Positions 420 to 61,363 of a stretch of 64,000 nt of DNA are shown here, piece by piece. The stretch comes from a virus. The notes beneath the pieces are model-generated. The model was not told the origin of the DNA and searched no databases. It saw only the letters and a program-made list of their open reading frames with translations. The position numbers and the translations under genes were made by a program. The stretch is from positions 5,072 to 69,071 of the IMG/VR virus record IMGVR_UViG_3300043749_000038. One strand, 5' to 3'. Each line of letters starts with the position of its first letter. Position 1 is the stretch's first letter.

Positions 420-420
420 A

Positions 421-1977: not shown

Positions 1978-1992
1978 AAGCACAAATAGTCG

Positions 1993-2021
1993 TTGCATTC
2001 CAAAATTAGACGGACTATAAT
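1993..2021 (+). promoter_or_regulatory. Sigma70-like promoter for head genes
   Basis: TTGCAT-17 bp-TATAAT upstream of scaffold gene. Confidence 0.6.
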
Positions 2022-2103
2022 CGTACAAGTATCACCGTCTGACTAGGTCAACGACTATTTCACTTCTGCGGCTAGGCCGTTAATTCATCCTAAGGGGATA
2101 AAA

Positions 2104-2877: not shown

Positions 2878-2889
2878 TAAGGAGCCATC

Positions 2890-4035: not shown

Positions 4036-4058
4036 TCTCGGCGCAGTGTGGGCATCAG

Positions 4059-4086
4059 ACCGGCCGGAGAAATCCGGTCGGTTTTC
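4059..4086 (+). terminator. Rho-independent terminator after capsid gene
   Basis: ACCGGCCGGA-GAAA-TCCGGTCGGT hairpin followed by T run. Confidence 0.7.
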
Positions 4087-4105
4087 TAATAATTAGGAGT
4101 CCAAC

Positions 4106-4303
4106 ATGCAACTCGAAACGATCAAGGTCAAGTGCGCGGTTGTCCCGGGCAACGATCAAGGTTTTTACGTCATCAACAAGGAAGACTTCGATGCTGAAAA
4201 GCACGAGCTCTTCGATGCACCGGCCGAAGTCCCGAAGCAGGAAGAAACTAAACAAGAAGAAAAACCTGCCGAAGAGACCGTCAAGCCGTCCTGGCAGCAG
4301 TAA
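4106..4303 (+). CDS. Small virion-associated protein
   Basis: AGGAG RBS; INKEDFDAEKHELF motif of the kind seen in post-capsid small proteins. Confidence 0.55.
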   Translation: MQLETIKVKCAVVPGNDQGFYVINKEDFDAEKHELFDAPAEVPKQEETKQEEKPAEETVKPSWQQ

Positions 4304-4330
4304 TAACCACACATGACGTAGAGGTTCTAG

Positions 4331-6280
4331 ATGGCTAAGGGTGCACTTTCCACAAACCCGGTATCGACATACACGCTTCCGGCGGGTTGCGCGCCTTATG
4401 GTGTCGCTGCATCCCCCGACAGCAAGAACGTCTACGTCGTCACATCGGGATCGACTGCTGCAACAGCCGGTGTGATCCAGCTTGCGGTTAGTTCCGCCGA
4501 CGGCTCGCTCGGGCAGATCGGTACGCAGCCGCTGCTTGCGGCCACTTCCAACGGCCCGCGCCATGCGGTCGTGTCGCCGGACGGCAAGCACGTCTATGTG
4601 ACCGTCACGGGCTATGACAAGCTGTCGTATTTCGTGCGCAGCGCCACCGACGGTTCGCTCTCGGGGCTCACGTCCTATACGTCCGGTGTCTCCTACCCGA
4701 CGTACGTGGCGATCTCGGCCGATGGTGCGCACGTCTACCTCGTCAACAACAACAGTGGCGGTGCCAGCGGCAACGTCCAGGTCTACTCGCGCAATGCCAG
4801 CACCGGCGCGCTAACCCTGCTCCAGACGATTGCGCTTGTTGGCGCATTCGGCGTTGCAGCTACGAAGGACGGCAAGGCCGTCTATGTGTCGACCACAGCC
4901 AGCGGCGGTCAAGTCGTTGCCTACACCCGCGACGGCAACTCGGCGTCAGGTACGTACGGCCAGCTGACCGCTGTTGCATCGGGTGCGTACGCCACTGCTT
5001 CGGGCTTTCCGAACGCTGTCGGCATCTCGGACGACAGCGCATTCGTCTATGTGCTGAGCGACGCTGGTTCGCAGTACACGAGCTGCTATGCGCGCAACGC
5101 TGCTGACAACACGCTGACTCACGCGTCCACATGGTATCCGACGGTCGCCGCTGCTGACGCCAACGGTAACTGGGATATCGCACTGTCTGCAGATACGGGC
5201 AACACCTCGCTGTATTCCGCAATCAGCGATGGTCAGCGCATTGCGCAATTCACTCGTAATACCAGCACAGGCGTTCTGACGTCCAACGCAGCAGCGCCGT
5301 CGGTGTTCACGTCGAACTACAACGGCACGGCGCGTGGTAGCAACGGCCCGTACGGCCTCGCTGTCCTGCCGAACAATGCCTATCTGTATGCAGCGTCTTC
5401 CGCAGCCGCTAACACGGTCGACGTATTTACGATCGACCAAGGCGCAGTTGCTGACAGCACGCCGCCAACGTTCACCGGCACGATTGCCGCAACTTCGACC
5501 GGCAGCACGACCGAAACGCTCGACTGGAGCTCCACGACCCATACGGACAATGTGGGCATCACGTCTTACGACTACAGCCCGGACGGTACGAACTGGACCA
5601 ACACGGGCAGCACTGCAACGAGCGTCGGTCTGACCGGACTCGCGCCTTCCACGCAATACACGTATCAGGTTCGTGCCAAAGACGCGGCCGGCAATGTCTC
5701 CACCCCGGCCTTGTCCGTGACGTTCACCACTGCTGCGGGTGCAGACTCCGTCGCCCCTGTGATGCAAGGCTCGCTGTCGCTGAGCAACATCGGAAAGACC
5801 GGCGCCACGGTGAGCTGGTCCGCCGCAACCGACAACGTCGCGGTGACTGGTTACAAGGTGGACAGCGGCACCGGAGCCTACGTGGATGTGGGTAACGTGC
5901 TAACCACAAATGTTACGGGCAGAGCCGAACTGTCAAGTTCCGCAATTCGTGTGGTGGCATACGACGCAGCGGGTAACGTCTCGACGCCGCTGACCGCAAC
6001 CCTGAACACCATCGGCGCTTCGTACACTTTCGACACGATGAGCAATGGGTCAGGCGGTTACTGGGCAAATCAGGCCGTTGTCTGGAACTGGTGGCCGGGC
6101 GGACGCATCGGTTCGCTTGCCGGCATCACCCCTAAGCAGGGAACCGGCACCACGAATGCTTCCGGTGTGCTGACGCTCTCTGGCAACCTTCCGACCGGCG
6201 CAGGCCTGGCTCTGGTGGCAAAACAGAACACCGGCGCCACCGACGACGCTGTGTTTTATCAGGCTGGGACGGCGAACTAA
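4331..6280 (+). CDS. Putative head/neck fibre: beta-propeller plus two fibronectin type III domains
   Basis: Repeated SPDGKHVYV-type blades; two DxxxP...W...DNVxxTxY...VxAxDAAGNVS FN3 units. Confidence 0.7.
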   Translation: MAKGALSTNPVSTYTLPAGCAPYGVAASPDSKNVYVVTSGSTAATAGVIQLAVSSADGSLGQIGTQPLLAATSNGPRHAVVSPDGKHVYVTVTGYDKLSYFVRSATDGSLSGLTSYTSGVSYPTYVAISADGAHVYLVNNNSGGASGNVQVYSRNASTGALTLLQTIALVGAFGVAATKDGKAVYVSTTASGGQVVAYTRDGNSASGTYGQLTAVASGAYATASGFPNAVGISDDSAFVYVLSDAGSQYTSCYARNAADNTLTHASTWYPTVAAADANGNWDIALSADTGNTSLYSAISDGQRIAQFTRNTSTGVLTSNAAAPSVFTSNYNGTARGSNGPYGLAVLPNNAYLYAASSAAANTVDVFTIDQGAVADSTPPTFTGTIAATSTGSTTETLDWSSTTHTDNVGITSYDYSPDGTNWTNTGSTATSVGLTGLAPSTQYTYQVRAKDAAGNVSTPALSVTFTTAAGADSVAPVMQGSLSLSNIGKTGATVSWSAATDNVAVTGYKVDSGTGAYVDVGNVLTTNVTGRAELSSSAIRVVAYDAAGNVSTPLTATLNTIGASYTFDTMSNGSGGYWANQAVVWNWWPGGRIGSLAGITPKQGTGTTNASGVLTLSGNLPTGAGLALVAKQNTGATDDAVFYQAGTAN

Positions 6281-6490
6281 ATGTTACGCAACCTTAACGT
6301 ATCTACAGCCGGTTCGAGACTTCTGAGCAGCCCTGCTGTTCAGGGCCCTCCGCCGGTCACTATTGACGCAAGTCAGATTCCGAAGATTCGCTGGATCACG
6401 TTTGCTGGTAACAGCCGTGTTGTCAGCTTCGAAGGAACCGGCCGTGTTATCAGCTTTGATGGTACTAACCGTACCATCCCGTTTAACTAA
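6281..6490 (+). CDS. Hypothetical protein with 9-aa RxxxFxG repeats
   Basis: Abuts previous stop; RWITFAG/RVVSFEG/RVISFDG/RTIPF. Confidence 0.5.
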   Translation: MLRNLNVSTAGSRLLSSPAVQGPPPVTIDASQIPKIRWITFAGNSRVVSFEGTGRVISFDGTNRTIPFN

Positions 6491-6498
6491 GGACTATC

Positions 6499-6843
6499 AT
6501 GACGATCAACCGTAACCCGTATTACGACACCGCAAGGGATCGTTGGTATGTCGACAAAGACCCTGACAATCAGTGGACTTACGTTGCTGACATGACCTCC
6601 GAACTGACGCTGAACAACACCACGGCGTCGACTTGCACAGCAATTGTGAGCGATTCGCGCATTACGGTACTCGCTGGTCCGACCGTGCAGACTCCCGGCA
6701 ATTTGCTGATCAAAGTGAAGTTTTCTGGTCCGGTTGTCGGAAGCGGAACTTACACGGACGACGCGTTCATTACTCTGCGTACGGTATGCGCTAACGGGGA
6801 CCAGTTCGACAAGACCATTTGGGTCAAGCCCGTGCAGGACTAA
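6499..6843 (+). CDS. Putative fibre adaptor protein
   Basis: KDPDxxxxYxxD motif, beta-rich, AAGGA RBS. Confidence 0.5.
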   Translation: MTINRNPYYDTARDRWYVDKDPDNQWTYVADMTSELTLNNTTASTCTAIVSDSRITVLAGPTVQTPGNLLIKVKFSGPVVGSGTYTDDAFITLRTVCANGDQFDKTIWVKPVQD

Positions 6844-6844
6844 C

Positions 6845-7015
6845 ATGGACCAGATTGACGCCACCATGCTGGTTAAGATCCAGAAGGAGCGGTTGCTGAA
6901 AGAGCAAGCTGCTCCCGTAACTGCGCCCGCTCAAACTGTGCTCCCGCAGCCCAGCGCGGGGCCTTACCCATTGAAAGGCGTCGTCCCCAATTATCCTTTG
7001 AAGGGTAAAGTATGA
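6845..7015 (+). CDS. Hypothetical protein (56 aa)
   Basis: Fills gap between neighbours, ATGA overlap with next gene; duplicated YPLKG. Confidence 0.45.
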   Translation: MDQIDATMLVKIQKERLLKEQAAPVTAPAQTVLPQPSAGPYPLKGVVPNYPLKGKV

Positions 7016-7563
7016 GCCTCATCGTTGAAGACGGCAGTGTTGTGGCCGGTGCTGAGTCTTACGTCACTGTTGAAGACGCGGACTTGTACCACTACAACAG
7101 GGGCATGACGGCATGGACAGGCCTTGACGTAGCGAGCAAAGAACAGGCCCTCCGCCGTGCCACTGACTTCATGCTCGGTCGGTATCGCGGTCGTTGGAAG
7201 GGTGCTAAAACTCGCTATCAGCAAGCGTTGGACTGGCCGCGCGTCGGCGTGACGCCGGACGATGCGCAGAATCCATTCAGCACTCAAATCGGTTACGGGT
7301 ACGGTTATAAATACGTGATCCCTTATACCGTTGTTCCGAACGAGGTGAAGAACGCTTGTTGCGAACTGGCCTTGCGTGCTGCGTCTGGTCCGCTGCTTGC
7401 CGACCTTGAGCCGCGCATCTTAACCGAGACGGTTGGTCCGATCACGGTCAAGTACGACCCGAGCTCGCCTCAATACATCCGTTATGCGCAAGTCGACGCA
7501 ATTCTTTCACCGCTGCTTGCAAACGGCGGCGTGGGTGCGACTGTCAAACTGACACGCACTTAA
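7012..7563 (+). CDS. Head-tail adaptor (DnaT-like annotated family)
   Basis: MSLIVEDG...AESY, QALDWPR, VKNACCELA, ETVGPITVKY motifs. Confidence 0.8.
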   Translation: MSLIVEDGSVVAGAESYVTVEDADLYHYNRGMTAWTGLDVASKEQALRRATDFMLGRYRGRWKGAKTRYQQALDWPRVGVTPDDAQNPFSTQIGYGYGYKYVIPYTVVPNEVKNACCELALRAASGPLLADLEPRILTETVGPITVKYDPSSPQYIRYAQVDAILSPLLANGGVGATVKLTRT

Positions 7564-7569
7564 AAGAGC

Positions 7570-7598
7570 TTGCTTTGCCCAAACTTCCATGCTACCAT
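7570..7598 (+). promoter_or_regulatory. Sigma70-like promoter for neck/tail genes
   Basis: TTGCTT-17 bp-TACCAT in intergenic gap. Confidence 0.45.
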
Positions 7599-7622
7599 GC
7601 CTGTATTCTGTAAGGTGTGGGC

Positions 7623-8015
7623 ATGGACTATACTCGGATCGCGCAAGTTGTAGTAAAGCAGATCGCCAGCTACGGGCGAGATGTTACCTTGCGCCAGTTT
7701 CCGTACGGAGCAGCAACCTACGACCCTACCAGCTTGACCGTAAGCGCTCCAACGTCCCAGCCCGTTGAGACTGTCGTCAAGGGTCTTGTTACCGACCAGC
7801 CTGGTAAAAGGATCGGACCTCAGTACGGCACGAACATGAAGAAAGACACTCTGATCGAAGACGGTCAGAAGTGGATTTACATTGACGGCATGGGTCCGAG
7901 GCCTAAACCGAATGACAAAATTGTAATCGGCGACGTAGAGTACACAGTCGACGATGTGCAGGAAACTGCACCCGGCGACGTGGTTCTGTTCTATTTAGTA
8001 GTGCTGTACCGATGA
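7623..8015 (+). CDS. Head closure/stopper protein
   Basis: Position, size, YGRDVTLR and YDP motifs. Confidence 0.6.
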   Translation: MDYTRIAQVVVKQIASYGRDVTLRQFPYGAATYDPTSLTVSAPTSQPVETVVKGLVTDQPGKRIGPQYGTNMKKDTLIEDGQKWIYIDGMGPRPKPNDKIVIGDVEYTVDDVQETAPGDVVLFYLVVLYR

Positions 8016-8545
8016 GCAAGTACGGGATCAACACTGCGGCAATGGAAGGTATCTTTGCCTTCGTGAGCCGAAGCAAACAGGGGATTCACACTTGCACGAA
8101 GTATGCTCTGTTGGAGATCGGTGTACGGTTGCAGATGTATTCGGCTGTGGGCGATCCGAGTTTGTGGTCGAAAGAATCTGTGCGGAGGGCGTTGCATAAG
8201 AATTACGTACCGGGTTTATTCATCAACAATTGGCAACTTGGAGTTGACCAGTTCCCCACAGGGATGTTGACGAATACGCCTGACGCTAGTGCAAGCACGT
8301 CGACAAGGAGCTTGACAAAGATTCCTCGTTGGCCTGCTTATCACGACTATTACTTCGTGAACAATACGCCGTATGCTCAGAAGTTGGAGCTAGGCTACCA
8401 TTCGCACCAAGTGCCACCGGGGGGAATGGTTGGGCGCGTAAGGTTGGAGTTCCCACAGATTATTCAGGAAGCAATCGCGAAGTATCATTCTGGAGTTGGA
8501 GATGTCACAGGTAAAAATCAAGTCAGCTCTGCATACGGCGATTAA
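8012..8545 (+). CDS. Neck/tail completion protein (HK97 gp10-like)
   Basis: NNTPYAQKLELGYHSHQVPPGGMV motif. Confidence 0.7.
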   Translation: MSKYGINTAAMEGIFAFVSRSKQGIHTCTKYALLEIGVRLQMYSAVGDPSLWSKESVRRALHKNYVPGLFINNWQLGVDQFPTGMLTNTPDASASTSTRSLTKIPRWPAYHDYYFVNNTPYAQKLELGYHSHQVPPGGMVGRVRLEFPQIIQEAIAKYHSGVGDVTGKNQVSSAYGD

Positions 8546-32074: not shown

Positions 32075-32162
32075 TGGCGGAAAGTGTAGGATTCGAACCT
32101 ACGGAGCCTTTCGACTCGTCTGGTTAGCAACCAGATGCATTAAACCACTCTGCCAACTTTCC
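32075..32162 (-). tRNA. tRNA-Ser(GCT)
   Basis: GGAAAGT acceptor, TCTGG-TTGCTAA-CCAGA anticodon arm, long variable arm, GTTCGAATC, G discriminator and encoded CCA. Confidence 0.92.
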
Positions 32163-36537: not shown

Positions 36538-36630
36538 ATTTATAGACGAACTTTAGAGGGACTCGAACCCTAGCACTTGCCGATTGCCTCGGCCGTTCTG
36601 CCAATTAAACTATAAAGTTCGTCTATAAAT
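36538..36630 (-). ncRNA. tRNA-like element with extended acceptor stem and short anticodon loop
   Basis: 18-bp perfect terminal inverted repeat enclosing D arm (GTTT-AATTGGCA-GAAC), GCCGA-GGCAA-TCGGC arm and AGGG-TTCGAGT-CCCT T arm; no CCA. Confidence 0.7.
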
Positions 36631-40861: not shown

Positions 40862-41716
40862 TCACACCGCCACTTTCGCTTTGATTGCAGGATGGGGATT
40901 GTAGTCCTGAATTTCGAAGTGCTCGATCTTATAATCGAACAGGCTGGGGGCCTTGTGCAGGAAGATGGTGGGATTGCCGCGTTCTTCACGCGACAGTTGA
41001 AGCTCGACCTGTTCCATGTGGTTGGAGTACAGGTGGCAGTCACCGCCGGTCCAGATGAACTCGCCTGGTTGCAGCCCGGTCTGCTGCGCGAACATGTGGG
41101 TAAGCAGAGCATAGGACGCGATGTTGAACGGGACGCCGAGGAAGATGTCGGCGCTGCGCTGGTAGAGCTGGCAGGACAGCTTGCCTTCAGCCACATAGAA
41201 CTGGAACAGTGCGTGGCACGGTGGCAGATTCATATTCGGGATGTCCGCAACATTCCAGGCTGAGACGATAATGCGACGGCTGTCCGGGTTATTCTTGATG
41301 GTGTGCAGCGCTTCCGATATTTGGTCGATGGACTTACGAACGACGTATTCCATATAATTCCCGTCACTGTCTTCGTCGTCCACGACAGTAGTGTACGGCC
41401 AACTGCGCCACTGCGCACCGTAGATCGGTCCCAGCTCACCCGTAACAGGGTCAGCCCATTCATTCCAGATGCGAACGCCGTTGTCTTGTAGGTATTTGAC
41501 GTTCGTATCGCCGGCGAGGAACCAGATGAGCTCGTGGATGACGGACGGCATGTGGACCGACTTCGTAGTGATCAGCGGGAAGCCCTGCTGCAAGTCGAAG
41601 CGCATTTGATAGCCGAACACGGAGCGCGTGCCGGTGCCGGTGCGGTCGGTCTTGACCACACCATTGTCGCGGACGTGCCGCATGAAGTCGTGATATTGGG
41701 CGGTTGCGGTTTTCAT
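40862..41716 (-). CDS. thyA: Thymidylate synthase
   Basis: [37 protein letters not shown]. Confidence 0.97.
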
Positions 41717-45723: not shown

Positions 45724-45752
45724 GGTGTGGTTATTAGTTGGTGCGGACAGCT

Positions 45753-48418: not shown

Positions 48419-51400
48419 TCATATTCCTGTAATCTCAAATAAGTAAATTTTCAATCCCGGATTCATCTCTTGCACCTTCTCGACAACCAGTTTAAACTCA
48501 ACAGGGTTGCGAGTTTTAAACGGCTTGATCTTGGGCAGGTTAGTCCTCATCACCCACATGACCTTCGGTGGTTCAGGTTGACCGGCCTTTTCCTTCTCAA
48601 GCTGTCGCATTACTGCGGCCATCAGTGCAGGATGATCTGAAGCACGGATACCCATATACAACCTCCTACAAGCTGCGCAGGGTTATTACCCAAGCATACC
48701 CCTACGCGCACATTTTTAACAGCGGCAAAGCGTGTTGCCGCACGCGGCAGGGTGCAGTTTTACCCCTTGGTAAGCAGGTTCGGGTAAAACTTCGCCAGTT
48801 GCTCGTTAAGGGAGTTAAAAACCTGCTTGTTGAGTTCGGACTCTTTCACCGAAGCAGCGATAAGAACTCTGTCGGTTGTCGACTGCATTGCCATGCGTGC
48901 AAGCGTGGTTTGATCGGTCAAAGCGCGAACAATTAGACCGAACTGCTCAGCGGTGATGTGCACGTTCAAACCATAGCGTTGGAAACGCTCTGCTTCATCA
49001 AGACGGCTTGTACCTTTGTGCTGTTTGACCACACTGAGCGCAGCTTGGAGCGAACCAACCGAGCGATGCAGTTCACTGATGTCATACACCAGAGCATATT
49101 GCAGGTCAGGCGAGAACTTACCGAAGTATTCCGCCTCCATTTGACGGGCAAGCGCAGGATTCTCGAACTTTGTGCACCATGCTTTGAACAGCGGAGGATG
49201 TTCAGTGAAGAACTTCCGCGCTTGATCAGGCAACTTAGCCATAATCTGCTCAGATGTCAGACTACGAATAAGTTCTGCAAAATTATCTTCCATTGTTTAC
49301 TCCTCATATCGAGCAAAAGTGCCCGTCAATGCGCCACCGAAGTGACGCATTAGCTGGAACTTTAATCGTCTAGCTGGAACTTTACAGAGGTTCGCCGACG
49401 TATGCGGACGGGTCGACGTTGTAACCCAAGCCGATCAAAGCTTTAGCTACATCGCGCGGTAAGCAGGAGCGACCATCGTAATCCCTCAAGCTCTTGTCCG
49501 TCTCAAACCAGAGTCCGCCACCTTCACCGTAGACGTCGTGCTCGTAGTAACCGTAATTGGTCGTCGGCGAAACTTTCACTTCCCATTTGCCTTCCTTGGC
49601 GGTCAGGGTGTAGTCGTGCTTTTTGAGATCCATATTATTCTCCATGTGTGGTTAAGGGTAACACAGTTCAAGCAGCTTGCTTGCGTTTTTGAAGGTCTTG
49701 GTGGACCGTTGTTTCCAAGACATCGTTAAGCGCCTGCACGCACTTCAGGTGGAAGTCAGCTTCACGCTTGTGGTCAGCAATCTTGCGCTGATTGTAGAAC
49801 ACGGCTGAATCACCGTTTTCCATCTTGTGTTCATACCGACGCTGGGAATTGCGGTGACTTTCCACGCGCTTCCAGTGCCAGATACGAAGTTGGGTAAGAT
49901 TCATATTCATTCCTTTTCCAGACGAGACATTGAGTTTCCAAATTGCGTGTTGATGAAAATCGGCAACTTTGTGCAGCTTACGGATTTCCGACTTTCTACA
50001 AGGGGCATCGTGGCTGTTCGCAGCACTGAAAGCTAAGTTACGGAATAGAGCAAACTTATCTTTATGCCATTTGTGGAGTTCTTCGAGGGTCATCAAGCCA
50101 CCTTTGCAATCTGAACAAAAAGACTTGCTTGGTAATTCTGCATTTTAATGACCAGATTCCCTGCAACCAATTCGTAAAGTTCCTGACGCTGGCTGATGTC
50201 AGTCTTAGCGATTGTTTCTGCTATTTGTTCAGCCATCTTGTTAAGTTCGCCTTTGGTGTGGTAGCTCATGCATGAACCCCCGTTGCTTTGATCAAGAGCG
50301 TAGCAGCTTCGGTTTTGGCGTCGATGAAGTAAAAGTTGTAACGATTGTAGGCGTCAGTGGCTTTGTCGAACGACTCGCTAATGTGCTTGCTATTGATTTG
50401 ACCCCACACGCAGTAGTTCTCGAGCATGCCCACAAAATCGAGGTTGAGCTCAACGCGCCCGTCGTTGGTGTGCACGAGGAAGCGCTTGATTTCGCGATCG
50501 GGTTTGATGACGTATTCTTCAACAACCCAGCTACCGTCGTTGTTCATCGCTTCAAGTTCAGCCTTGTGCTCTTCGGCAGTACCGAAAGGATTTAAGCTTC
50601 TTTCCATTTCGGACAGATACTCTTTCCTGAATTTAGGACTGAAATCTCCAACCAGCTTCACACAGTGATTGCTGTATTGCAGCATATCGTTCTTAATAAT
50701 GCTCATCTTGGTTCTCCTTGACTTTAAGCCAAAAGTTTTCAACTTCAAGGGCAAACGCTTTGTCTTTCAACGCCACGTTCTCCTTAACGGTTCGCGCTAG
50801 TTCCTTTGCTAATTCCTCTTTGGTGCGCGACTCCATGAGGTAGGTGAAGAGGTTCAATCAACACCCCATCCCGTTTGTACAACTTCACGACGCACCTCAA
50901 CAGGGATGTAGGTGAGTTTGTCCGGTAGGTTCGCAGGGCGCCGTCCGGTAATTATCCGATGATTTGGATACTCAAGCACGGTAGCCAGTTCAATGTTGCT
51001 GGTTTCACCAACATGGACCGACTCCGTCCCCCACTTTAAAACCACACTAATGATTAGGAACGTGCCATCTTCCTTGACGGCGACGTATCCTTTTGTGACT
51101 TTCATATTTCCTCCTTTAACGGACCAATCGTCCGACAAGCCACCCTGTTGCCAAGGTAGCTTAGCTGACGTTATCGGTTACGTTGTTGATCTTGGTACTG
51201 ACGCTTCGGCATATCCCACTCGTCCAAGAAAGGCTCAATGGCGTCACCGCGCTTCTCGCGCAAATCCAGGGCAATGCGGACGTGTGGGTAATACTTGGCA
51301 ATCGCCTTGATCAGGATGCCGTCGCTGACGTAGCAACCGAAGTTGCCACCGTTCTTCCACCAAGCTTTAGCTTTCACATTTATGTGAATAAATCTGCCGC

Positions 51401-54400
51401 TGTCGGGAATGATCTCGTACTTCACCTTACCTTGCTTAACCAGATGGTACGGGTCAGACATGTCGACAACAGTCAGCTCGCTGTAACCTGCTGGTGAACC
51501 TCCAAACCACGGACCACGCAAGTGCACCGTGCGCCCGTCCTTCAGTTTGATGGTAAAGGTGGCGCCCGCGTAGCCGTTTTGCTTGGTGGTTTGCCAGTGG
51601 CCTTCAGGAAGCGGTTTGCCGTTGTCGTCCTTATTGCTAAGAGCTCCGCTGTGCCAGTGCTGCTGCATTACGCCTTCGTGCTCGCGGAACCAGCGACCAT
51701 TTTCACCCTGCTCCCAAAGCACATCCTTGGGCATTGGCTGTGTTGCGCATTTGAACTTGACGCGAGGGCTATTGGCCCAACCCATCATCCAGTCGATGTG
51801 CAAACCCTTCACCCAAGCGGGCAGATCCTGCGGGCCAACCGGGCGTTCAATTTCAACCCAGTTCGGGGCGCCTTCAAGACCATGACGAATTGCCAAGGTC
51901 TGATCTTTACTGGCTATCATGCTATCTCCTTGTTAGTGTTACCGGGTAAGTCACCCGTAACAGTGCTCTGTCACAGCACTGTGGCTGGTTACTTAATCCT
52001 GCTCGTGCTTGCCGCTACCGGCAAACTTCTGTTTGCTGAATTCACCAACGATCGGAACACCGTTGGGCGCAAGCACCGGACATTTCTCGCTCATGCTGTG
52101 AACGCCGTTGCGCTTGCCGCAATGCGCGCAGAGTTCGGTGAGCTCGAACTGCCTTCGGCTGTCGTTGAAGTGTGGTGCCATGTTGTGGTTATCCTTTCAA
52201 ATGTTAGGGTATTCGCGCACGGTGCGCAGGAACACGTTACGATCTGCGTCCCATTCCTCGACGCATACTTTGCCGTACGTCGCAGACAATTCGTTAGCAC
52301 GCTCAAGAGCGCGCTGCTTGTTCAGTTCGTTGTGCTCTGGTTCGCCGACGTACCAACCTTTTTCGACACGGCTCCAGTTAAGGGCGCTGCCGGTTAAGGA
52401 TGCCCACACTTCGTAGCGCAGGCGGGTTGCGTTTGCCATTAGTAGCTCCTTTCAGCGTTGGAATTAACTTCACGTTTCGGGTTAAACCGGCCCAGGATGT
52501 AATCTGGCCGGCGTTGGTCCGGTTGTGGGCACGCTGCAAGGATGCGCCAACCAGAGTCCAACTGGCTTTGCAGGTTGTCGGAGCAAGAGTTCTCGCACAA
52601 CATGACTTCGTTGTAGGTTGCGAGCGCTTGCCCGGGCATGTGCACTTCGCAGCGCTCGTTGTAAGCACGCTCTTGCGGTGCAAGGTTCAGCAGCTTGTTA
52701 GCTACTTGCTCGAAGCGGTTATAGTCGAATGCTTCTGGGCCGTTGAATTCACGAATGCCCTTAAGCTCGAACTTAAAGCCATTTTCAACAGCATAGAGCA
52801 TCTGTTCTCTAGATAGTAAGATGCCGTGCGGTTGGCTTTCTTGGTGCTCGCTGAGCTCATTTCCGATAGATTTCAACCATGCGCTGCGTGCTTCCAATAC
52901 AGCCTTGGTTTGGGCGTTGTCTTCATCTGTGCTGTAGCTGGATTCGTACAGCCATTGGAAGTCCACATTGTACAGTTTCATTTGCAGTTCTCCTCTTGAA
53001 ATTTGTGTCTACGGTTACAGTGCTGCAACTGTTATTGTACCACAATTCCAGCACTATGGAAGGGTCTATTGTGCGCAATCAGCGATCAATTTGTCAATCC
53101 AAGCTTCGCGCGCACGATTGTAGATATTGTTCTCGTCAGCCCAGGCAAAGTGCTGGTGTCTTGTGTAATTATCAATATATTCAACGTTGAGCTGGATGCG
53201 AAGCCAGTGATTGAAAGTATAGAGGTAATTGAGCCCTGCTTGAATCTCTTGCAGGAGGCTTTCAGCTTCGACGGAAAGCTCGGGCATGCTGTCTCTTATG
53301 TGCTCAATAGAGTTGCACATAAAGACGTCCGAGGACGTGCGGTCTTGAAACTCTGCTTTCAGCATGTTCAGGATTTTGAGACGATTCTTGTTCATTTAGA
53401 CTCCTTGTACAGTGAGGTAATACCAGTGGTCCTCCACTCCCTTGCGTCCTCCGCCGTTGAGGATGTGCTCCAACTGCTCGTCGTTGCGCGGGATTCGTTC
53501 TCTTAACTGCTCGATGGTGGGTTTGTTTGCCCACACAGCAACGAAGTACTCGCCGTGCTGATCGTACTCGTTGTATTCCTCGGTGAGAATCCAAACGGAG
53601 GGAACTTGTGTGGGCACATGCTCGGGCATTGCAATGACTTCGCGGAACGCGCCCATTACGTAGCCTTGCAGCTTTTTAGATAGCAGACGTGCAATATGCT
53701 GATGAAATGCAGCTTCCAGCTTTTGGGCCGGTGTCTCTTGTCGGTTCATTTAGACTCCTTTATGCCAATAAGGCGGTTATCGGATAAGCATCCGTAAATG
53801 CACCCTGTCACAGTGCATTGGCTGAGGCTTACAAATACGCGTCTGCTAGGTAGCGGCAGAGGTAGAAGAACGAAGGGACGCACATTACTTGTTGACCATT
53901 AATGAACCCACCCCAAACACGATTGCCATGCAAGGAACGGCCCACTACTTTGATATGTGGTTTGTTCATGGTCTTAACCCCAATAGCTGAAGATGCACCA
54001 CTTCGGTTCCTGCCAGGGGATGTTGTGGCGGGTGCAGAAGTCGCGCAGGGCTTTGACTTCGCTATCGTGTACGTGCCCGAACACAGCAGCGGTCGGATAA
54101 CCACGCAGAGCCACTTGCTTCGTCCCACGCACGGCCAGGAAGTACATTGGGTTATCGCGGGAGCAGTGACGGATAAGGTCAACTGGGACTTTGTTGATGT
54201 CCTCGACGGGCGTTGTATCAGTGCTGTAAAGATCCAACAGCACTGCTTCTTCGTCGTTGTCGTACTCGTCGAACATGCGCGCTAAACCTTCAGGCAGGTT
54301 GTTATCCAGATCGCCCAGGTCGAAACCGAAGGCTAGGATTGCGTTTGTGCTCACTCCCATTTTACCTCCTCGTTATGGTTTGGATTGCGTTTGTAGATTG

Positions 54401-55572
54401 GCCCATTTTATTGCTCCTTAATGTTTGATTGGTCTACGTGGTGCAACTCCCCGTTGAATGCGACAAGGTAAGCAGGCTCGGTGTCGGTACTGGTGAACCG
54501 CCTGTTGACAACCTTGCCGTTCTCGCGCATTTCACCGTCAAAGCACTTGGCTTTCACGATGGTGTCGCCGATTGTGAATTTGTATTGGTTCATGTTAGTC
54601 CTCCTTGTTGTGGTTATACCAGATTAAATTCTGCTCGGCGTAATACTTCAGCCGCTCTTCGTAACTTGCGTCAGCAGCATCATAGCGTTTCTTAACCCGT
54701 TCGTATTCTTCCGAGTCCGTTATGGTCGCGAGCTTAGCAGCACGCTGCTGTCTCTCGTCAACCTTCGGTTTGCCGGCCTCGGCAGCGAGCATAATTGGAT
54801 TCATTACGCTCAGGTGGAAGGGCTGCAACGTACCGGGCAAGCTGTTTGGATCAGCAAGCGCCATCTTCTTTAGATCACGCAGTTGCTTATCGCTAAAGCC
54901 ATCTCCCGTTCGTGCGTAGTGCGTCGAGAGCTTTTTGAAGTTATCGTCAACTTGCCCGTCACTTGTTTCATTCGGCTTTGCGTCTTGCTTTTGACGGCGA
55001 GCATTAACGCGCAGCTCCAGAGCGTCGTTACGCAAACGCAAGGACCGCAAACGTTCCTGCTCATACTCCAGCTTTACTCGACGAAGCTCCTGAAGGGTTT
55101 CGTTCCTTGTGTAGGACTTGGGCTCTTTAACCACAGGTGCTTTGGCTGGACAACCTTCACCAATAAAGTCAAGAATAACTTTGCGCTGGTAGTCGTCGAA
55201 GATATAGTAGTCCAGGAAAGCCTTGATATTATCTGTGCTTTCGAAACCTTCTTCAAGCAGGTTGTACGTTACGTACGCCACAGGTTCGTGAACGCTTGTG
55301 CCGTGAACAACACCTTCGTCCAAGTCAAGCTCGCGGATGACGTTAAAGAGCAATGCAATGCGCGCATACTTGGTAACGGGCTTCGGATTGAACCAGTTGC
55401 CCTGACGGTTGTTGTAAACCTGACGGATTACACGCTGCCCGTACGAAGGATTAGTTTCGATCCAGTAGCGAACAGGCGTACGCTGGTGGTTGAGCATGTA
55501 CTGGTCCGTCTCGAAACAGGTAGCTTGCGATACATGGTTAATAATTTGATTGTCTTGCAGATAATGTGACAT
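48419..55572 (-). other. Array of small early/middle hypothetical genes (e.g. 48760-49293, 49382-49645, 49668-50096, 51171-51920, 52439-52981, 53066-53395, 53396-53749, 53974-54360, 54408-54593, 54595-55572)
   Basis: Tightly packed co-oriented ORFs with GGAG-type RBS; no recognisable family. Confidence 0.6.
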
Positions 55573-55605
55573 GTAGAACTCCGTAAAATTAGCGAAAGCA
55601 TGTAC

Positions 55606-55634
55606 ACTATACGCATGAAAATAAAAAATGTAAA
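55606..55634 (-). promoter_or_regulatory. Sigma70-like promoter
   Basis: TTTACA-17 bp-TATAGT on minus strand. Confidence 0.65.
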
Positions 55635-56705
55635 GTTATTTGCTGTTTGGTGGGAGGGTGCCCGAGGAATGGGGGTGTCCCCGCTAGTTTTGCAGCCCCC
55701 CAGAGTGTGAAAAGTAAGCTGTTTGTACGGGGGGTGGGGCCTATAGGGGCTACCCTGGCTACCAAACTCGCTTTTTAAACTTTTCACAATGTGTGTTTTT
55801 AAGTTTTTTTGTTAATTAATTTGGCTAATTTCTGTAGTTTAGCTATGTAAACCCGGTAAGAATCGGGTTAGTAACAGGTTTAATGCATCAAAATCACACA
55901 AACCACAGACCAGCAGCTCGCTTCAGCATGCAAGCCACACAAAAATGCGCGGCTCAAAGCGCACAACTGTATATCCACTCCATAGTGTGGGCATACAGTT
56001 GGAGCCTGGTGCAAAACCAAGCTCCTTAGCTCATCTCACAGCCTGAGTAGATTGTTCATGAGTATTCAGTCCTTATCGCTTATAACGTTCAATAATTGCT
56101 TCGGTCATCGTTACAACAGCCTGTTCGCCCATGCGCAGCAAATCTGCGAGGGTCTCAGGCTTGTAGCTGTGAGCTCCTGTCTCGTTAATGATGGTCAGCC
56201 CGTGGACTTTGTGGGTGCGGTACTCAACCGTCACCGCGCGAACCATAAAAGACAGCTCGTCGTCACGGAAACTAAAATCAATGTGCGTGCGGACCATACT
56301 TCCTCCTATGTGTGGTTATAAAGCCTGAGCAGACTACTCGTGAGCAGCCCAGGCGGGTGGGTTAAAGTAAAACAACACCGACACTGAACTTAATGACGGT
56401 GGACGCAGGGTCCCATTCGTAATGCGGAGCAGACAGCTTACCAGTCGCGACGCTGCGCGATTGGGAATAGTACAATTGCTCTGTGTCGGCGTCTAAGACT
56501 TCGGCGTACGTTGCCTTGTATTTGTTGATCTGCAGATTGCGCACAACGTTGACACTTGCTTCGAACAGGTTAGAACCGCGAGTGGTCTTGACCAACTCAG
56601 TCTTGTACCAATAACGCGTCATTAACTTCGGTGGTGCATCCTTGACCGAGCCAGTCTGCATCACAATTTTACCTTCCATAATTCACTCCATTTAATGTGG
56701 CACAT

Positions 56706-56759
56706 ACCACAGACGCCCAATTAAGGGCGTTTCGACCAATTAGGTCTCGTCAGTGTGGT
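56706..56759 (-). ncRNA. Type I hammerhead ribozyme
   Basis: ACCACA-CUGACGA-GACC(UAAUU)GGUC-GAAAC-GCCC(UUAAUU)GGGC-GUC-UGUGGU: full catalytic core and three stems. Confidence 0.9.
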
Positions 56760-56963
56760 TATAAAAGCTTGCTCATACGATCGCGAAGCTCATCCTCAAC
56801 GTTAATGGTGTCGAGTATCTTAAGCATGTCGTATTGGTTTAAGTCTTTACCGAACTCATGCTTTAAGACTTGCAAGAGCTCCATTGCGAACTTATCGAGC
56901 GTGTTGTTCACAACTGCGTCCAGCCGACTCATTGCGCTCATGAGTAATCTCCTCAAGGTTAAT

Positions 56964-56987
56964 AAAAAGCCCGCTGGTTAGGCGGGC
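56964..56987 (-). terminator. Rho-independent terminator
   Basis: GCCCGC-loop-GCGGGC-TTTTT on minus strand. Confidence 0.65.
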
Positions 56988-56995
56988 CGGGCGAA

Positions 56996-57622
56996 TCACT
57001 GTGCTGCCGGAGCAGGCTGTGTAGGCATGCTGGCCACCGGGATGAGCTGGGAGCGACCTTTGATGCCGTTGTACGAGCGCCACCGAGCGAACTGAGTTTT
57101 GATCGTGTGCTCGTTGACGTCCTTGAGATCCGGGTGCGCACGCACTTGGCTGATGAGCGCCGGGTGGCCGTTCTGGTCGTGGCTGATCTTGTCAGCGATT
57201 GCCCAGATTTGGCCGCACAGCGAATCTGGTGCCGGGCGGGTGATGCCGTTCTGCTGCTGCTTGTCCGCCTTGGGAGCACGAGCTTGCTTGGGCTGGCCAA
57301 GGACGACCGAAGGGTTGATGCCGAGTGTTGCTGCGAGTTGTTCAACTTGCTTCTTGAACTCGAGCTCTTTCTTCTGCTCTTCGGTCAGCTCCGGTTCCTT
57401 GTGCACTGCCGGCGTGGTTTGGGTCGTCGGTGCGAACTGCTGGCGACGATCGTGGTCCGCCTGGCGGCGTTCAGCCTTGCGCTGCTCTTCGTCGACTGCG
57501 TGTTCCTCTTTCGGAGTCTCGAGGTTCTTGCCTTTCGGGCCTTCGACGGTGCCTTGAGCGACTTTGTGCACACGCGGAGCACGTTTTGCAGCAGCTTTCG
57601 GGGCGGTTTGAGTAGTTGCCAT
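56996..57622 (-). CDS. Putative DNA-binding protein (paralog 3)
   Basis: NGITRP...QIWAIAD...NEHTIKTQFARW. Confidence 0.7.
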   Translation of the reverse strand: MATTQTAPKAAAKRAPRVHKVAQGTVEGPKGKNLETPKEEHAVDEEQRKAERRQADHDRRQQFAPTTQTTPAVHKEPELTEEQKKELEFKKQVEQLAATLGINPSVVLGQPKQARAPKADKQQQNGITRPAPDSLCGQIWAIADKISHDQNGHPALISQVRAHPDLKDVNEHTIKTQFARWRSYNGIKGRSQLIPVASMPTQPAPAAQ

Positions 57623-57699
57623 GATAAATTACCTTTCGCTAGTAGGTTTAAAGAGCAACGTCCTTGCGGACTTCGGCAGGATTGCCGGCAGTATGCACG

Positions 57700-57833
57700 G
57701 TTAATGCACACTGCGAGCACCCCTACAACGCACGGCAAGCTTTGTTGCCACGGTTTTCGCAGCTTGGGTAGGGTGGGAGTAGCTTCCCACCCCTTACACC
57801 GCTTGTAGCTTGCGGCGCCCAAACTGCATTAAC
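57700..57833 (-). ncRNA. Putative multi-branched structured RNA / leader
   Basis: 9-bp closing stem GTTAATGCA/TGCATTAAC just downstream of TAAAAT; internal hairpins with repeated AAGCUAC loops. Confidence 0.5.
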
Positions 57834-59071
57834 TACATTTTAGCCCAAAATTGCGAATTTAAACGTGCTGGGCGTCGCTTTTTGGGGTCTTATCAGCGTC
57901 AAAGAACGATTCAGCGAACACAAGAGCGGGATAACCTCGGATTCCAAGGAATAACTCGAGATTTATCATAATGCTCTGCACTCCCATGCCCTTCTTGACC
58001 TCGTCTTTGATAACCTCGACAGTGTGGTTATACTGCTTGCCAAGGTAGAAGCGAACGTCGTCCATCGCCTTCTTGCGCTTGAGGTCTTCATTCGTGAATT
58101 TTGAGTAGTCTACGGTCCAGTGCATGATTAACGTCCTTTCTCGCGAGCGAATTGAGCGAAACCAGTTGCAATGTCGGCATCAGGCGTCTGGAAGATGTCC
58201 AAGTCGGTCTTGGCAAGGTATTCGTCAATGAGATCGTCGAGCATTCCGATGTACCAATCGTGCAGCAAGATGCTGAGCCAGTCTTTACGAGCCGTGACAA
58301 ACGCTGCGTTCTTGATCTCACACGGCGTGTCTTTGTATTCTTGCAGTTTCATTTGTTCTCCTTAGTTGAGTTCGAGCAAAGCGCTCGACAAGTGAGCCAG
58401 TTAAGGCCCACTTAGCTAGAGCTTTACTTCATGCAGTCCATGACAGCTTCCATCACTTGACCCTTGCGCAGAGCCGAGTCAACAGCGTCGTACATGTAGT
58501 CCTGCACGAAGCCGCTAACGCCTTGATCGCGAAGGAACGCGAGGAAGTCCGGGTTGAAGAAGTTCCCTTCGAATCGTGGCAGGAGTCGATGCTTCATGAC
58601 TACTTGCATCCCACCTTCAACGGGGGCGAACTCCACTTTGTCGTTCGACTTGAAGTCGACTGCGGTAATTTGCAGGTCATTCATGACGTCAGCACGCATC
58701 GTTTCTTCGTAGGTGTTGACGCGGGTGGTTTTAGTTGCCATGTTGATTCTCCTTGGTTGGTACTGCGGTTATGAGCAAAAGCGCTCGTGAATGCCCACGG
58801 TATGTGTGGGCATAAGCTAGAGCTTTACTTAATGTTGAAGCGACGCTTGAGTTCTGCCTTCACTTCACGAGCAACAGGACCTCGCCAGGTTTGTGCATTG
58901 ACGAGGAAGTAGGTGCAGATTTCCTCTGCGTTGGCGAAGCCGTAACGGTCACCATCCTTCACGAAGGAAAACATCGCTTCGATGTAAGGGACCGCGCCGA
59001 AGTAAGGCTTCTTCCAGTCGTCTTTAATGATCTTGGCGATTTCAGCTACGCGCATGTCTTGCAGGTTCAGA

Positions 59072-59245
59072 TTACTCATGGCTATTCTCCTCTTGCTGTT
59101 TGACGTACTCAACGAGTACTTTGTTCATCATTGGTTGGTAATTCGCGCCAAGTTCCTCAGCACGTTGTTTGAAATAAGCGACAACTTCCTTGTCTACATA
59201 CAAGCAAACTCGGTCCTTGTCGTCATTTTTACGCTCTCGGCCCAT
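59072..59245 (-). CDS. BrnA-like ribbon-helix-helix protein (57 aa)
   Basis: RVCLYVDKEVVAYFKQRA...NYQPMMNKVLVEYV resembles the BrnA/CopG RHH pattern. Confidence 0.6.
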   Translation of the reverse strand: MGRERKNDDKDRVCLYVDKEVVAYFKQRAEELGANYQPMMNKVLVEYVKQQEENSHE

Positions 59246-60928
59246 GATTAAGCCCCCATCGTGAAACCACCAGCCCAACCATCGGGTTGGCGTTCGACGC
59301 TGCGATCTTCGTTGCAGATCCAACCCTCGACAAGTTCCACTTCAACCAAAGCGATGGACGCCAGTTCGTAGTGGTCGCCTGCCACGGCATCTACTTTCAT
59401 CATAGCAAGCAGCTTTTCTTGGCTGTCACGTGACACTCCCAGGCTACGGATACTTTCGAGCATCTCGTTTGCACGGTTGATAACACCAACGACGTTGGCT
59501 TGTTTGAATTGGTTCGAATTCATGATTTACTCCTTTAAGGTTAGATGCAAAGTGCATCCAGTAGCCCAGCACGCTGAGCTATAAGATTACTTTACGGTCG
59601 CAAGCTCAATGGCCTGTACAGCGTGCGGAGGTAGCGGATGCTATCCCACCACAACCGAGCAGACTCGAGATCATAGAAGATTGCTTCGAAACTATGATCA
59701 GTTCCAAACTGCTCAGCTGTTTGGTACTCCACCTTGTATTCTTTCATGTTTAGAACTCCACATCTTCTGGTTTAACAATGATCCACATTGCCATTACTTG
59801 CAACAGGATCGACGGAACACTGCACAATGTCCGATTCCACACAGTGGAATCCATCGGCAGGTAGTAATTGAGTACGAACATGTAGACGATGGCTGAGATA
59901 GTCATAGCTACGCTCATCACGCTGTTGATGATCAGCTTCTCTTTTTGGAGTTGGTGCTCGGTTTTGGCTTTGTACATGATTTTTATCCTTGTTGTTGAGT
60001 TAGTGCAAGAGCGCACTCACTACCTCAGCACGCTGAGGTAGTAAATTGCTCTTACTTACTCGCAGCCATCAGAGCGTCTTCCATTACCCACTCAAACAAG
60101 TCACCTTCAAGCGTGTCGTGAACTGCATTACGCAAGCTGACTGGTTTGCTGTAGTCTTGTTTGTTGAGGAAGACTCCTTCTTTGATTCCTTGCTCAGCAC
60201 GTTTGATTGCGCAGCGTACGATCAACCAGACTGCAAAGTGGGTGAGTAGATGGTTCATGATTAATCTCCTCTCGTTGGTTGAATTAGTTGCACACTTCCA
60301 TTGCTTCAGGTTCGGTCCAAGTGAGGTCGCCCTCGGTCTTGGTGACTTCCACGATTTGCTGCTTGCACTCGTGAGTAGCCTGCTCATGCTGCTTGTGCGC
60401 AGCGTACATGACAGGCAAAGCAGCGACTGCTAAGATAACAGCGTGCACGACCATGTAGAAGTGTATCTTTTTCATGTTGTTGCTCCCTTGTTGTGTGGTT
60501 ATCAACTAATGCAGCCTGTTCCCAAGCTCCATTAGTATGCCGCCTGTCACGCGGTCACACCCCAACCATGGCGGACTCAATTACTCGTGATGTTGTACTA
60601 GCCTTGAGTAGTTGCTTTAGGTTGGTGAGTACTCATGTGCATGTTTAATGGCTTTTCGGGTAAGGTACTGTTAATTACGAACTTGCTATGTCTGCAAGCC
60701 ACTTTAACATGAACCCCTATTATTGTTGACTACTGGAGTACCGCTTTACAGTGTTACCCTTTTGCATGAGTGTGTTGCTGTACTGTTGTATTGTTAAAGA
60801 ACCGACCAGTGCACAGCGTTATGTGTGCGGCCTACTGCAAACTAGCTAAGTGGTGCGCTTGATGCTGCTTAGTTGGGCATACTGTCACTACACCCAAGTA
60901 AGCAACCCTTGCGGGTTGCGCTACCGCA

Positions 60929-61363
60929 TTACTGCTGTTGCGCTGCTGCCTTTGCTGCTGCGGTGCGGTACACACCAACTTGCGTACTAGCAGTTGCTTT
61001 GTTAATACCGTTGTCGGTGCACAACTGCACCATTTGTGCGCGCGTGTAGTGCGGGTACTTAGCGCACAGTGCGTGTACAGCAGCGCAGGGGCGCAGCGCT
61101 ACCCCGTCGACTACAACACTAGTGTTGCTTGGGGTAACTGTTGCGCTATTAGCACGCGCGGTGCCGGTATGCAACAAGTGTTGTACGTTTGCAATACCGT
61201 GCTGCGCAGCAAGCTGTTGCACACCAGCAATAAACGCTGCTTGCGCTGCTGCATGTTTACGTGCAGCATTTTTGCTTGCGCGCAATTGTTGCACCACAGC
61301 AATGCGTTGTTGCATACGGGTAACAGCGTTGCGTTGCACTTGGGTAAGTTGTTGTTTTTGCAT
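60929..61363 (-). CDS. First gene of leftward arm; Glu-free protein with putative DNA-binding domain (paralog 4)
   Basis: RPCAAVHALC...RAQMVQLC...GINKATASTQ; own promoter and AAGGT RBS. Confidence 0.7.
   Translation of the reverse strand: MQKQQLTQVQRNAVTRMQQRIAVVQQLRASKNAARKHAAAQAAFIAGVQQLAAQHGIANVQHLLHTGTARANSATVTPSNTSVVVDGVALRPCAAVHALCAKYPHYTRAQMVQLCTDNGINKATASTQVGVYRTAAAKAAAQQQ

Follow-up and report, generated by a model that had tools for sequence, protein, structure and literature searches.

Intercistronic RNA elements with two covarying folds in uncultured phages: candidate processing sites of the RNase III type

Analysis of a 64,000-nucleotide (nt) stretch of an uncultured phage genome (hereafter the window; bases 5072-69071 of the 69,071-bp virus record IMGVR_UViG_3300043749_000038, which bears direct terminal repeats) revealed that eight short RNA elements, E1 to E8, placed between the small genes of its early region, belong to a family of 40 members of two types in eight uncultured phage contigs, 32 of these members lying beyond the window. 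Each of the eight can adopt two mutually exclusive folds, and on the evidence of the aligned sequences both folds are under selection. With about even confidence we read the elements as processing sites for a host enzyme of the RNase III type, with a built-in refolding step that would provide the presumed cleavage products with hairpin ends. The novel features of the family are the second selected fold, the covariation of bases that switch partners between the folds, and its use beside hammerhead-like motifs of the same design.

Eight elements at the ends of small early genes

The elements, 51-55 nt each, lie inside operons on the minus strand, which is the coding and transcribed strand there, within 1 nt of where an earlier note on this DNA had placed them (Table 1). 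That note had also seen them at or just after a stop codon and, indeed, the first bases of seven of the eight (E2-E8) are the in-frame UAA of the upstream open reading frame (ORF), and E1 starts 20 nt past the true upstream stop codon. The 5' half of E1 is duplicated, the same 14 bases (UAAAGUUCCAGCUA) standing at the true stop and again 20 nt downstream, so that two alternative 5' strands could pair with the single 3' strand.

All eight fold into a lower stem and a variable upper hairpin, as had been described, and the further members found in relatives (see below) follow the same plan. From the base up, the lower stem of type 1 (E1-E6) has 5-8 bp and is separated by a 1x1 mismatch from another 2-3 bp; the 4x4 block AGCY/NNCG comes next, and an upper hairpin of 8-12 bp with variable sequence completes the element. 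Within the block, a G and a C are able to pair, and the A, G and C on the 5' side and the C and G on the 3' side are invariant in E1-E6. The claim that this block is common to all eight elements holds for E1-E6, but not for the two type-2 elements (E7 and E8), which harbour an AUYU/GRRU mini-helix instead (AUCU/GGAU in E7, AUUU/GAGU in E8): here a lower stem of 7-8 bp is followed by an asymmetric loop of A (5' strand) versus GC (3' strand), the 4-bp mini-helix and the upper stem.

An alternative open to the 3' strand of every element is to form, by itself, a second hairpin of 4-5 bp (hp2). The first base of hp2, whose loop is the 3' strand of the lower stem, belongs to the central block: it is the third base of NNCG (type 1) or the second of GRRU (type 2). 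Hp2 corresponds to the alternative 3' hairpin that had been proposed to form just before the next ribosome-binding site (RBS); alone it amounts to -5.0 to -8.8 kcal/mol across E1-E8, and it covaries (see below). The long interrupted hairpin (fold A) and the combination of upper hairpin and hp2 (fold B) are mutually exclusive, and the two are within about 1.7 kcal/mol of each other in E1-E7, with fold A clearly favoured in E8. When compared with 200 shuffles each, the elements showed stability z-scores from -1.6 (E4) to -6.9 (E8), and for six of the eight no shuffle was equally stable. The next Shine-Dalgarno sequence lies 3-25 nt beyond hp2, outside both folds. Two further structural proposals were rejected: a pseudoknot uniting lower stem and hp2 at the same time would leave the hp2 loop fully paired, with no linker to the 3' arm, and 2-3 bp beside the block share bases with hp2; sequestration of the Shine-Dalgarno sequence by the free 3' arm would have only 3-bp matches, as judged by eye.

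Stable GC-containing hairpins directly after stop codons also invite interpretation as intrinsic terminators or attenuators, the behaviour that the earlier note had named as speaking against processing. No T-run follows any of the eight, however, and none is among 24 terminator-like sites, a classical example of which stands at 56988-56968 in the early region; we consider termination or attenuation hardly credible as the function of the elements. Nor did any of the 17 promoter-like sites of a scan overlap an element. Hairpin promoters of the N4 kind were discarded as well: the phage encodes a tail tube protein and an NrS-1-like primase, shows no sign of N4 kinship, and the many G-U pairs point to RNA.

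The apical loop GUGACAG recurs at 51967-51975, 53804-53812 and 60543-60551 on the minus strand (on E3, on E4 and on a hairpin of the early leader described below) and on hairpins in three related contigs (G001, G005 and G006). The count of the corresponding 9-mer is not above chance (5 versus 2.3 expected), and only the hairpin context is notable.

Table 1. Intercistronic RNA elements and associated features in the early region of the window
Feature	Type	Position	Strand	hp2	Score, bits (model)	Stability z-score	Parts (5' strand/3' strand) or context
E1	1	49310-49364	minus	49310-49325	60.8 (R1)	-3.77	lower stem AAAGU/ACUUU, U x C mismatch, CC/GG, block AGCU/GACG, 10-bp upper hairpin, UUCG loop
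Second copy of E1 5' half		49371-49384	minus				UAA stop + AAGUUCCAGCUA, at the true end of the upstream ORF
E2	1	51120-51173	minus	51120-51134	52.1 (R1)	-4.03	lower stem CGUC/GACG plus AA/UU across a bulge; block AGCU/GUCG
E3	1	51943-51995	minus	51943-51957	60.8 (R1)	-2.50	UAAGU/ACUUA, A x G mismatch, ACC/GGU, block AGCC/UACG, GUGACAG loop on upper hairpin
E4	1	53781-53831	minus	53781-53794	58.4 (R1)	-1.63	GUAAGC/GCUUAU, C x U mismatch, UC/GA, block AGCC/UACG, GUGACAG loop
Hammerhead-like motif	type I topology	56706-56759	minus				directly after the stop of ORF 56759-56941
E5	1	58373-58426	minus	58373-58387	64.4 (R1)	-4.65	AGUAAAGC/GCUUUGCU, U x C mismatch, CU/AG, block AGCU/GUCG
E6	1	58773-58827	minus	58773-58786 (4 bp)	57.0 (R1)	-4.53	lower part identical to that of E5; upper hairpin differs
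E7	2	59544-59594	minus	59544-59558	66.4 (R2)	-3.65	GUAAAGU/ACUUUGC, asymmetric loop A/GC, AUCU/GGAU, upper hairpin
E8	2	60002-60054	minus	60002-60017	73.9 (R2)	-6.93	GUAAGAGC/GCUCUUGC, loop A/GC, AUUU/GAGU continuous with 10-bp upper stem, CGUG loop; 22 bp in total

A family in uncultured relatives and its partner-switching covariation

Two covariance models were built, model R1 from E1-E6, encoding only the upper hairpin and hp2, and model R2 from 16 type-2 elements. In the window, model R1 recovered its six seeds and, weakly, E8 (11.4 bits), with nothing else above 10.2 bits; in related uncultured contigs it found nine more members at E values up to 0.04, bringing type 1 to 15 (six in the window, four in G001 and five in G005). 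Model R2 returned 25 type-2 members at E values up to 1e-4: two in the window, five each in G001 and G005, four in G006, three in G007 and six spread over three short contigs from metagenomes. Five more distant uncultured relatives (G002, G003, G004, G008 and G009) gave no match to model R2 and a sole match to model R1, in G002 with an E value of 0.29, and none of five cultured relatives identified through their primase (NP1, DoCa3, VPv62, MMDA13 and HD01) harbours a credible element, the best scores with the two models being 11.3 and 14.8 bits. A scan for the type-2 pattern yielded 13 loci in genome contigs and 35 in metagenome contigs; by model R2 (E values up to 0.01) none of the 13 loci in bacterial genome contigs is real, and four of the 35 metagenome loci are, one of these four being a copy of G001.

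Rfam 15 holds no family that matches the elements, even at E values up to 10 on short stretches, and no published description of them was found in the literature searched, supplementary files lying outside its scope; literature on transcriptomes of the subfamily Queuovirinae (see below) brought up nothing relevant. The covariance-model search of Rfam and phage genomes, which the earlier note had suggested as a check, thus places the element family in a small clade of uncultured phages, outside Rfam. One type-1 member of G001 (L007:4379-4443) carries an extended -10-like sequence, TGGTATAAT, in the loop of its upper hairpin and has lost hp2.

The lower stems had been said to covary on the strength of the window copies, and the enlarged family bears this out. 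In an alignment of 16 type-2 elements made with MAFFT without recourse to structure, 95.2% of the 336 cells of fold A are paired, with both partners changed in 14 of its 21 pairs; the three outer pairs of hp2 are formed throughout (100%; AU 9/GC 7, GC 10/AU 6 and UA 16). The alignment of 15 type-1 elements was fitted only to fold B (upper hairpin and hp2), and on it 89.9% of the 248 cells of fold A are paired, with 14 of 17 pairs changing on both sides and the 1x1 mismatch itself conserved (unpaired in 10/15). The 99.4% pairing of type-1 fold B is read on the alignment that was fitted to that fold. For fold A, 0 of 500 shuffles reached the observed value in either type, and slid partners gave 28-47% in type 2 and 29-47% in type 1; since the copies are related, these shuffle counts are not probabilities and overstate independence. 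Several pair states recur in different lineages. A comparison that needs no alignment points the same way: the 5' strands of the lower stems pair with their own partner strand at -7.6 kcal/mol versus -5.3 kcal/mol with those of other elements (permutation p 5e-5), in 15 of 19 rows after the four weakest (two doubtful, one type-2 and one antisense) were dropped.

The same base covaries with different partners in the two folds. In type 2 (alignment A4), the partner of column 47 is column 13 in fold A (UA 9/CG 7) and column 64 in fold B (AU 9/GC 7); in type 1, that of column 65 is column 12 in fold A (CG 7/UA 7) and column 77 in fold B (AU 8/GC 5/GU 2). Fold A leaves the bases of the inner hp2 pairs of type 2 unpaired, yet each subtype (GAUCC/GGAUC and AGUCC/GGACU) shows a change of these pairs from GC/GC to CC/GG, and the hp2 arms occur in six complementary combinations among the 25 type-2 elements. 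All five hp2 pairs can form in 22/25 type-2 and 11/15 type-1 elements, the latter count mis-registering E6, whose hp2 has 4 bp. Where covariation switches partners in this way, it testifies with unusual clarity to an RNA that has to take up two folds in turn.

The elements might act uncut, with no endonuclease involved, as conformational switches read by the ribosome: a ribosome that ends translation at the stop codon within the lower stem would melt fold A and let hp2 form, such that the state of the element would report upstream translation and tune the stability or translation of the next cistron. The start of seven of the eight window elements at an in-frame stop codon, the near-equal energies of folds A and B in E1-E7 and the covariation of both folds all suit such a switch. 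However, the next Shine-Dalgarno sequence takes part in neither fold, and the switch would thus have no visible effect on initiation; a constant height of two helical turns and a conserved centre (see below) are not needed for a simple switch; and at least one member (L069:4609) has no stop codon at its 5' strand. We therefore regard an uncut switch as unlikely.

G-U pairs fill 64 of the 336 cells of type-2 fold A, where the opposite strand would show A-C, which identifies the RNA-sense strand as the folding strand. This bears on the proposal that the elements function at the DNA level, as homology patches of about 55 bp for the shuffling of early genes between phages, akin to the PeSL cassettes of T4-type phages, which are described as a sigma-70 promoter plus a terminator stem-loop (PMC2839356). 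PeSL cassettes, in what that paper reports of them, likewise are short conserved intergenic stem-loops repeated among small, fast-changing early genes, and stand out, within a plastic region, as patches of identity flanked by non-homologous ORFs (PMC2839356). In our phages, most early ORFs adjoining an element have no tblastn match in G001 or G005, blastn matched the 14-kb early region to G001 in 11 places, seven of them elements and one the hammerhead-like motif, and a match of 87 bases (87% identity) that includes E8 and its G001 counterpart is set between ORFs that are unrelated. Unlike PeSL cassettes, however, the elements hold neither promoter nor terminator and they covary for two RNA folds; this covariation and the many sense-strand G-U pairs argue that RNA folding has been selected, not only DNA identity. 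The pattern of DNA identity is real, and we take shuffling at the elements as a consequence rather than as their function, a primarily DNA-level role being decidedly unlikely.

Proposed processing by an RNase III-type enzyme and its competitors

If the elements are processing sites of the RNase III type, fold A would join the 5' strand, starting from the upstream stop codon, and the 3' strand into a coaxial helix of about 22 nt per strand, capped by the variable hairpin and centred on the conserved block (AGCY/NNCG with its one G-C pair in type 1, AUYU/GRRU beside the A/GC loop in type 2). If the block were cut on its 3' side, the upper hairpin would form the end of the upstream message and the 3' strand would be freed to form hp2, such that the downstream message would start with a hairpin a few bases before its RBS. 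After the cut, the lower stem would consist of only 5-8 intermolecular bp, whereas hp2 is intramolecular, and refolding would therefore be expected.

From the first pair of the lower stem to the apical loop, the two strands of fold A measure 22.2 +/- 2.3 nt (5') and 22.1 +/- 2.2 nt (3') in the 15 type-1 elements, and 22.3 +/- 1.8 nt (5') and 23.2 +/- 1.7 nt (3') in the 25 elements of type 2; in either type the conserved block occupies roughly nt 9-13 of 22. Centres unrelated in sequence are thus set in helices of equal height, about two turns, which favours a host enzyme of the RNase III type, specific for double-stranded RNA (dsRNA). The ideal substrate for RNase III from E. coli is described as a 22-bp helix with the cleavage sites central (PMC3867540), and a loop, bulge or mismatch at the target is described to direct a single-strand cut by which protective 3' hairpins are kept (PMC3867540, PMC1540722). 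As in such single-strand-cut substrates, a loop or mismatch near the centre of the helix is present in both types of element.

A hairpin at the new 5' end may protect the downstream message. A 5'-terminal stem-loop is reported, in work of Emory, Bouvet and Belasco in 1992, to stabilise mRNA in E. coli. A stabilising effect of the terminal hairpin that RiboJ leaves behind is also discussed (PMC6206723). Insulators of the RiboJ type resemble the elements in that the leader is cut away and a hairpin stands at the new 5' end, upstream of the RBS (PMC6206723). They differ in being man-made and self-cleaving and in carrying a separate, added hairpin, whereas the hairpin of the elements would come from the very strand freed by the presumed cut.

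The closest natural comparison is with the early RNase III sites of phage T7 (R0.3, R0.5, R1, R1.1 and R1.3). Cleavage of T7 early mRNA by RNase III is established; for the phage elements we infer it. The T7 sites, too, are intercistronic in a polycistronic early transcript and share a lower stem at or next to a stop codon, an internal loop of common sequence, a variable upper hairpin and a height of about two turns. When we folded the T7 sites R0.5, R1, R1.1 and R1.3, the stop codon lay in or abutted the lower stem, an internal loop followed, and the upper stem measured 9-13 bp. Unlike the phage elements, which come in two sequence types, the T7 sites as folded have no counterpart of hp2.

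Hammerhead-like motifs occupy equivalent slots in the same operons. The motif of the window (Table 1) scores 30.4 bits with RF00163 (gathering score 34; E value 0.00055), with the core CUGANGA, the GAAA, the cleavage triplet and three stems aligned, and its 3' product opens with a 6-bp hairpin of -7.0 kcal/mol, a stability that 0 of 200 shuffles attained. The relatives contain similar hammerhead-like motifs in intergenic slots (26.6-35.3 bits), described like that of the window as sub-threshold, and a core-motif search found eight hammerhead-like motifs in four genomes. The earlier note had attributed to the hammerhead the same refolding design as to the elements, and in five of these eight the 3' product indeed begins with a hairpin, from +1 or +2 and of -5.6 to -8.9 kcal/mol, in which a complement further downstream pairs with the 3' strand of stem I; the remaining 3/8 have none, and the product of one of the eight (L031:5712) was read by eye from the sequence. 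Hairpin-capped 3' products in 5/8 of the hammerhead-like motifs support the notion that such slots are selected for hairpin-capped downstream messages. For bacterial hammerheads, a role in the processing of polycistronic transcripts is put forward as a suggestion, rather than as shown, in the part of the literature drawn on here (PMC6765202).

Could type 1 itself be a new small self-cleaving ribozyme, with AGCY/NNCG as its core and interchangeable with the hammerheads of the same operons? The shared slot, the same logic of a 3' product that begins with a hairpin, and the few invariant bases within an internal loop would accord with this. However, the invariant bases number only about five, including one that sits in an ordinary G-C pair, and there is neither a pseudoknot nor a junction; type 2 forms a nearly continuous helix with no unpaired core in the same slot, so that self-cleavage is unlikely as a mechanism shared by both types; and the elements lack a hammerhead core and any match to the ribozymes of Rfam (hammerhead, twister, pistol, hatchet, HDV-like, and the RAGATH hammerhead and HDV variants). 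The local hammerhead-like motifs themselves score below the gathering scores of Rfam. We deem a type-1 ribozyme very improbable.

Another protein could read the central block, be it a phage nuclease, an RNA-binding protein of the phage or a host enzyme other than RNase III. The block is conserved in sequence (E1-E6), most early ORFs belong to no known family, and three ORFs of unknown function are shared with G001 and G005, the two element-bearing relatives that are complete (one of these ORFs also with the partial G007), and gave no match in three element-free genomes tested. But two different central sequences occupy the same slot, which suggests that shape rather than sequence is recognised, and no RNase or dsRNA-binding domain was detected among 58 phage ORFs with Pfam at E values up to 0.01. 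For eight ORFs, most of them common to the element-bearing relatives, the outcome was thymidylate synthase, RadC, HNH and sub-threshold noise, and two candidates inspected more closely (ORFs of 144 and 105 amino acids) gave nothing usable in a protein atlas. Recognition by such a protein is, in our judgement, improbable. A composite scheme, in which the hammerhead, type 1 and type 2 would be three interchangeable modules that cut the early operons into messages with hairpin caps, type 1 being self-cleaving or the target of a phage nuclease, and in which bistability would couple cutting to the ribosome on the stop codon, strikes us as highly doubtful. Of the candidates that the earlier note had left side by side (a host RNase, a phage nuclease or an unknown self-cleaving motif), a host enzyme of the RNase III type is thus the one we favour, and self-cleavage is unlikely as a common mechanism.

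Several points weigh against RNase III-type processing. E4 is scarcely more stable than its shuffled versions (z -1.63; 15 of 200 shuffles as stable), and hp2 is degenerate in 3/25 type-2 and in 2 to 3 of 15 type-1 elements. When T7 positions 400-8200 were searched, the best match to model R1 reached 6.9 bits (E value 1) and the best match to model R2 10.9 bits (E value 0.28); as the models fail to match T7, the likeness is one of analogy, not homology. The T7 cut coordinates marked on our folds are those that we take to be given by Dunn and Studier (1983), the T7 records listing no RNase III sites. The exact cut in the phage elements is not predictable. With the 28-nt upper stem-loop product of the minimal T7 R1.1 substrate (PMC1540722) as a ruler, the 3' cut would fall about 2 nt inside hp2, and with a symmetric 22-bp model about 1 nt inside it, in both cases shortening the protective hairpin; the modelled cut geometry fits within 1-2 nt, not exactly. 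In type 2, moreover, the only unpaired bases of the 3' strand (GC) lie in the middle of the 5' arm of hp2, and a cut there would destroy hp2. Finally, the substrate rules applied are those known from E. coli.

The phage, its early region and what the elements may mean

The one sequencing run listed with the window sequence is a DNA run of a soil metagenome, perhaps the source sample, and no RNA run is listed with it. Genes run on the minus strand in the 25-64 kb part of the window and on the plus strand in the 1-25 kb part. A megablast search with an 11-kb region as query found no near relative among 50,697 phage records, and two early proteins used as queries for related loci retrieved no relative either. 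The primase-helicase of 831 amino acids (phrog_3022) is about 50% identical to the primases of Nipunavirus-like siphoviruses of the subfamily Queuovirinae (Pseudomonas, Xanthomonas, Variovorax and Sphingomonas phages). As in Queuovirinae, genes for 7-deazaguanine synthesis accompany a thymidylate synthase on the minus strand at 25-43 kb: the Pfam summary lists QueC, GTP cyclohydrolase I, a radical-SAM enzyme and a QueF-like protein, families that it does not tie to individual ORFs, and the thymidylate synthase ORF spans 40862-41716. Two tRNA genes detected with Rfam, both on the minus strand, lie at 32078-32162 (61.7 bits, with a long variable arm) and at 36548-36619 (41.9 bits).

The early region consists of many ORFs of 45-325 amino acids, with sigma-70-like promoter candidates at 61880-61852 and 55634-55606. 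Between its first ORF (60929-61363) and the next lies a 453-nt non-coding leader on the minus strand (60476-60928), which may be a structured RNA; its part 60484-60602, containing the hairpin with the GUGACAG loop, is 76% identical to the equivalent place in G001. Two further long non-coding stretches on the minus strand, 55573-55879 (which contains the promoter-like site 55634-55606) and 57623-57858, are rich in G-runs, C-runs and palindromes and have counterparts at equivalent places in G001 and G005.

The 9-mer TAACCACAC occurs 15 times in the window versus 0.4 times expected, a count that 0 of 100 shuffles reached. Thirteen of the 15 copies are on the minus strand, among them 60493-60501, 56753-56761, 56310-56318, 49646-49654 and 45725-45733, and also those at 1031, 11551 and 18574 inside the late-gene region, which is transcribed from the plus strand. 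In the hammerhead-like motif, of the window and of relatives alike, the 9-mer makes up the 5' strand of stem I; it often stands just 5' of an RBS, with no longer common context visible around its copies, and may serve as a strand-specific signal in DNA or as a motif of RNA leaders.

The exchange of early genes between phages seems to take place at boundaries that the elements mark. If the favoured reading is true, they would be a natural counterpart of the insulators of synthetic biology, cutting the transcript and capping the new end with a hairpin, and the phage would use ribozymes and a host RNase for the same job in one operon. This would also give a testable function to phage hammerheads, which have so far been unexplained. 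The elements are short, modular and easily tested in vitro and in reporters.

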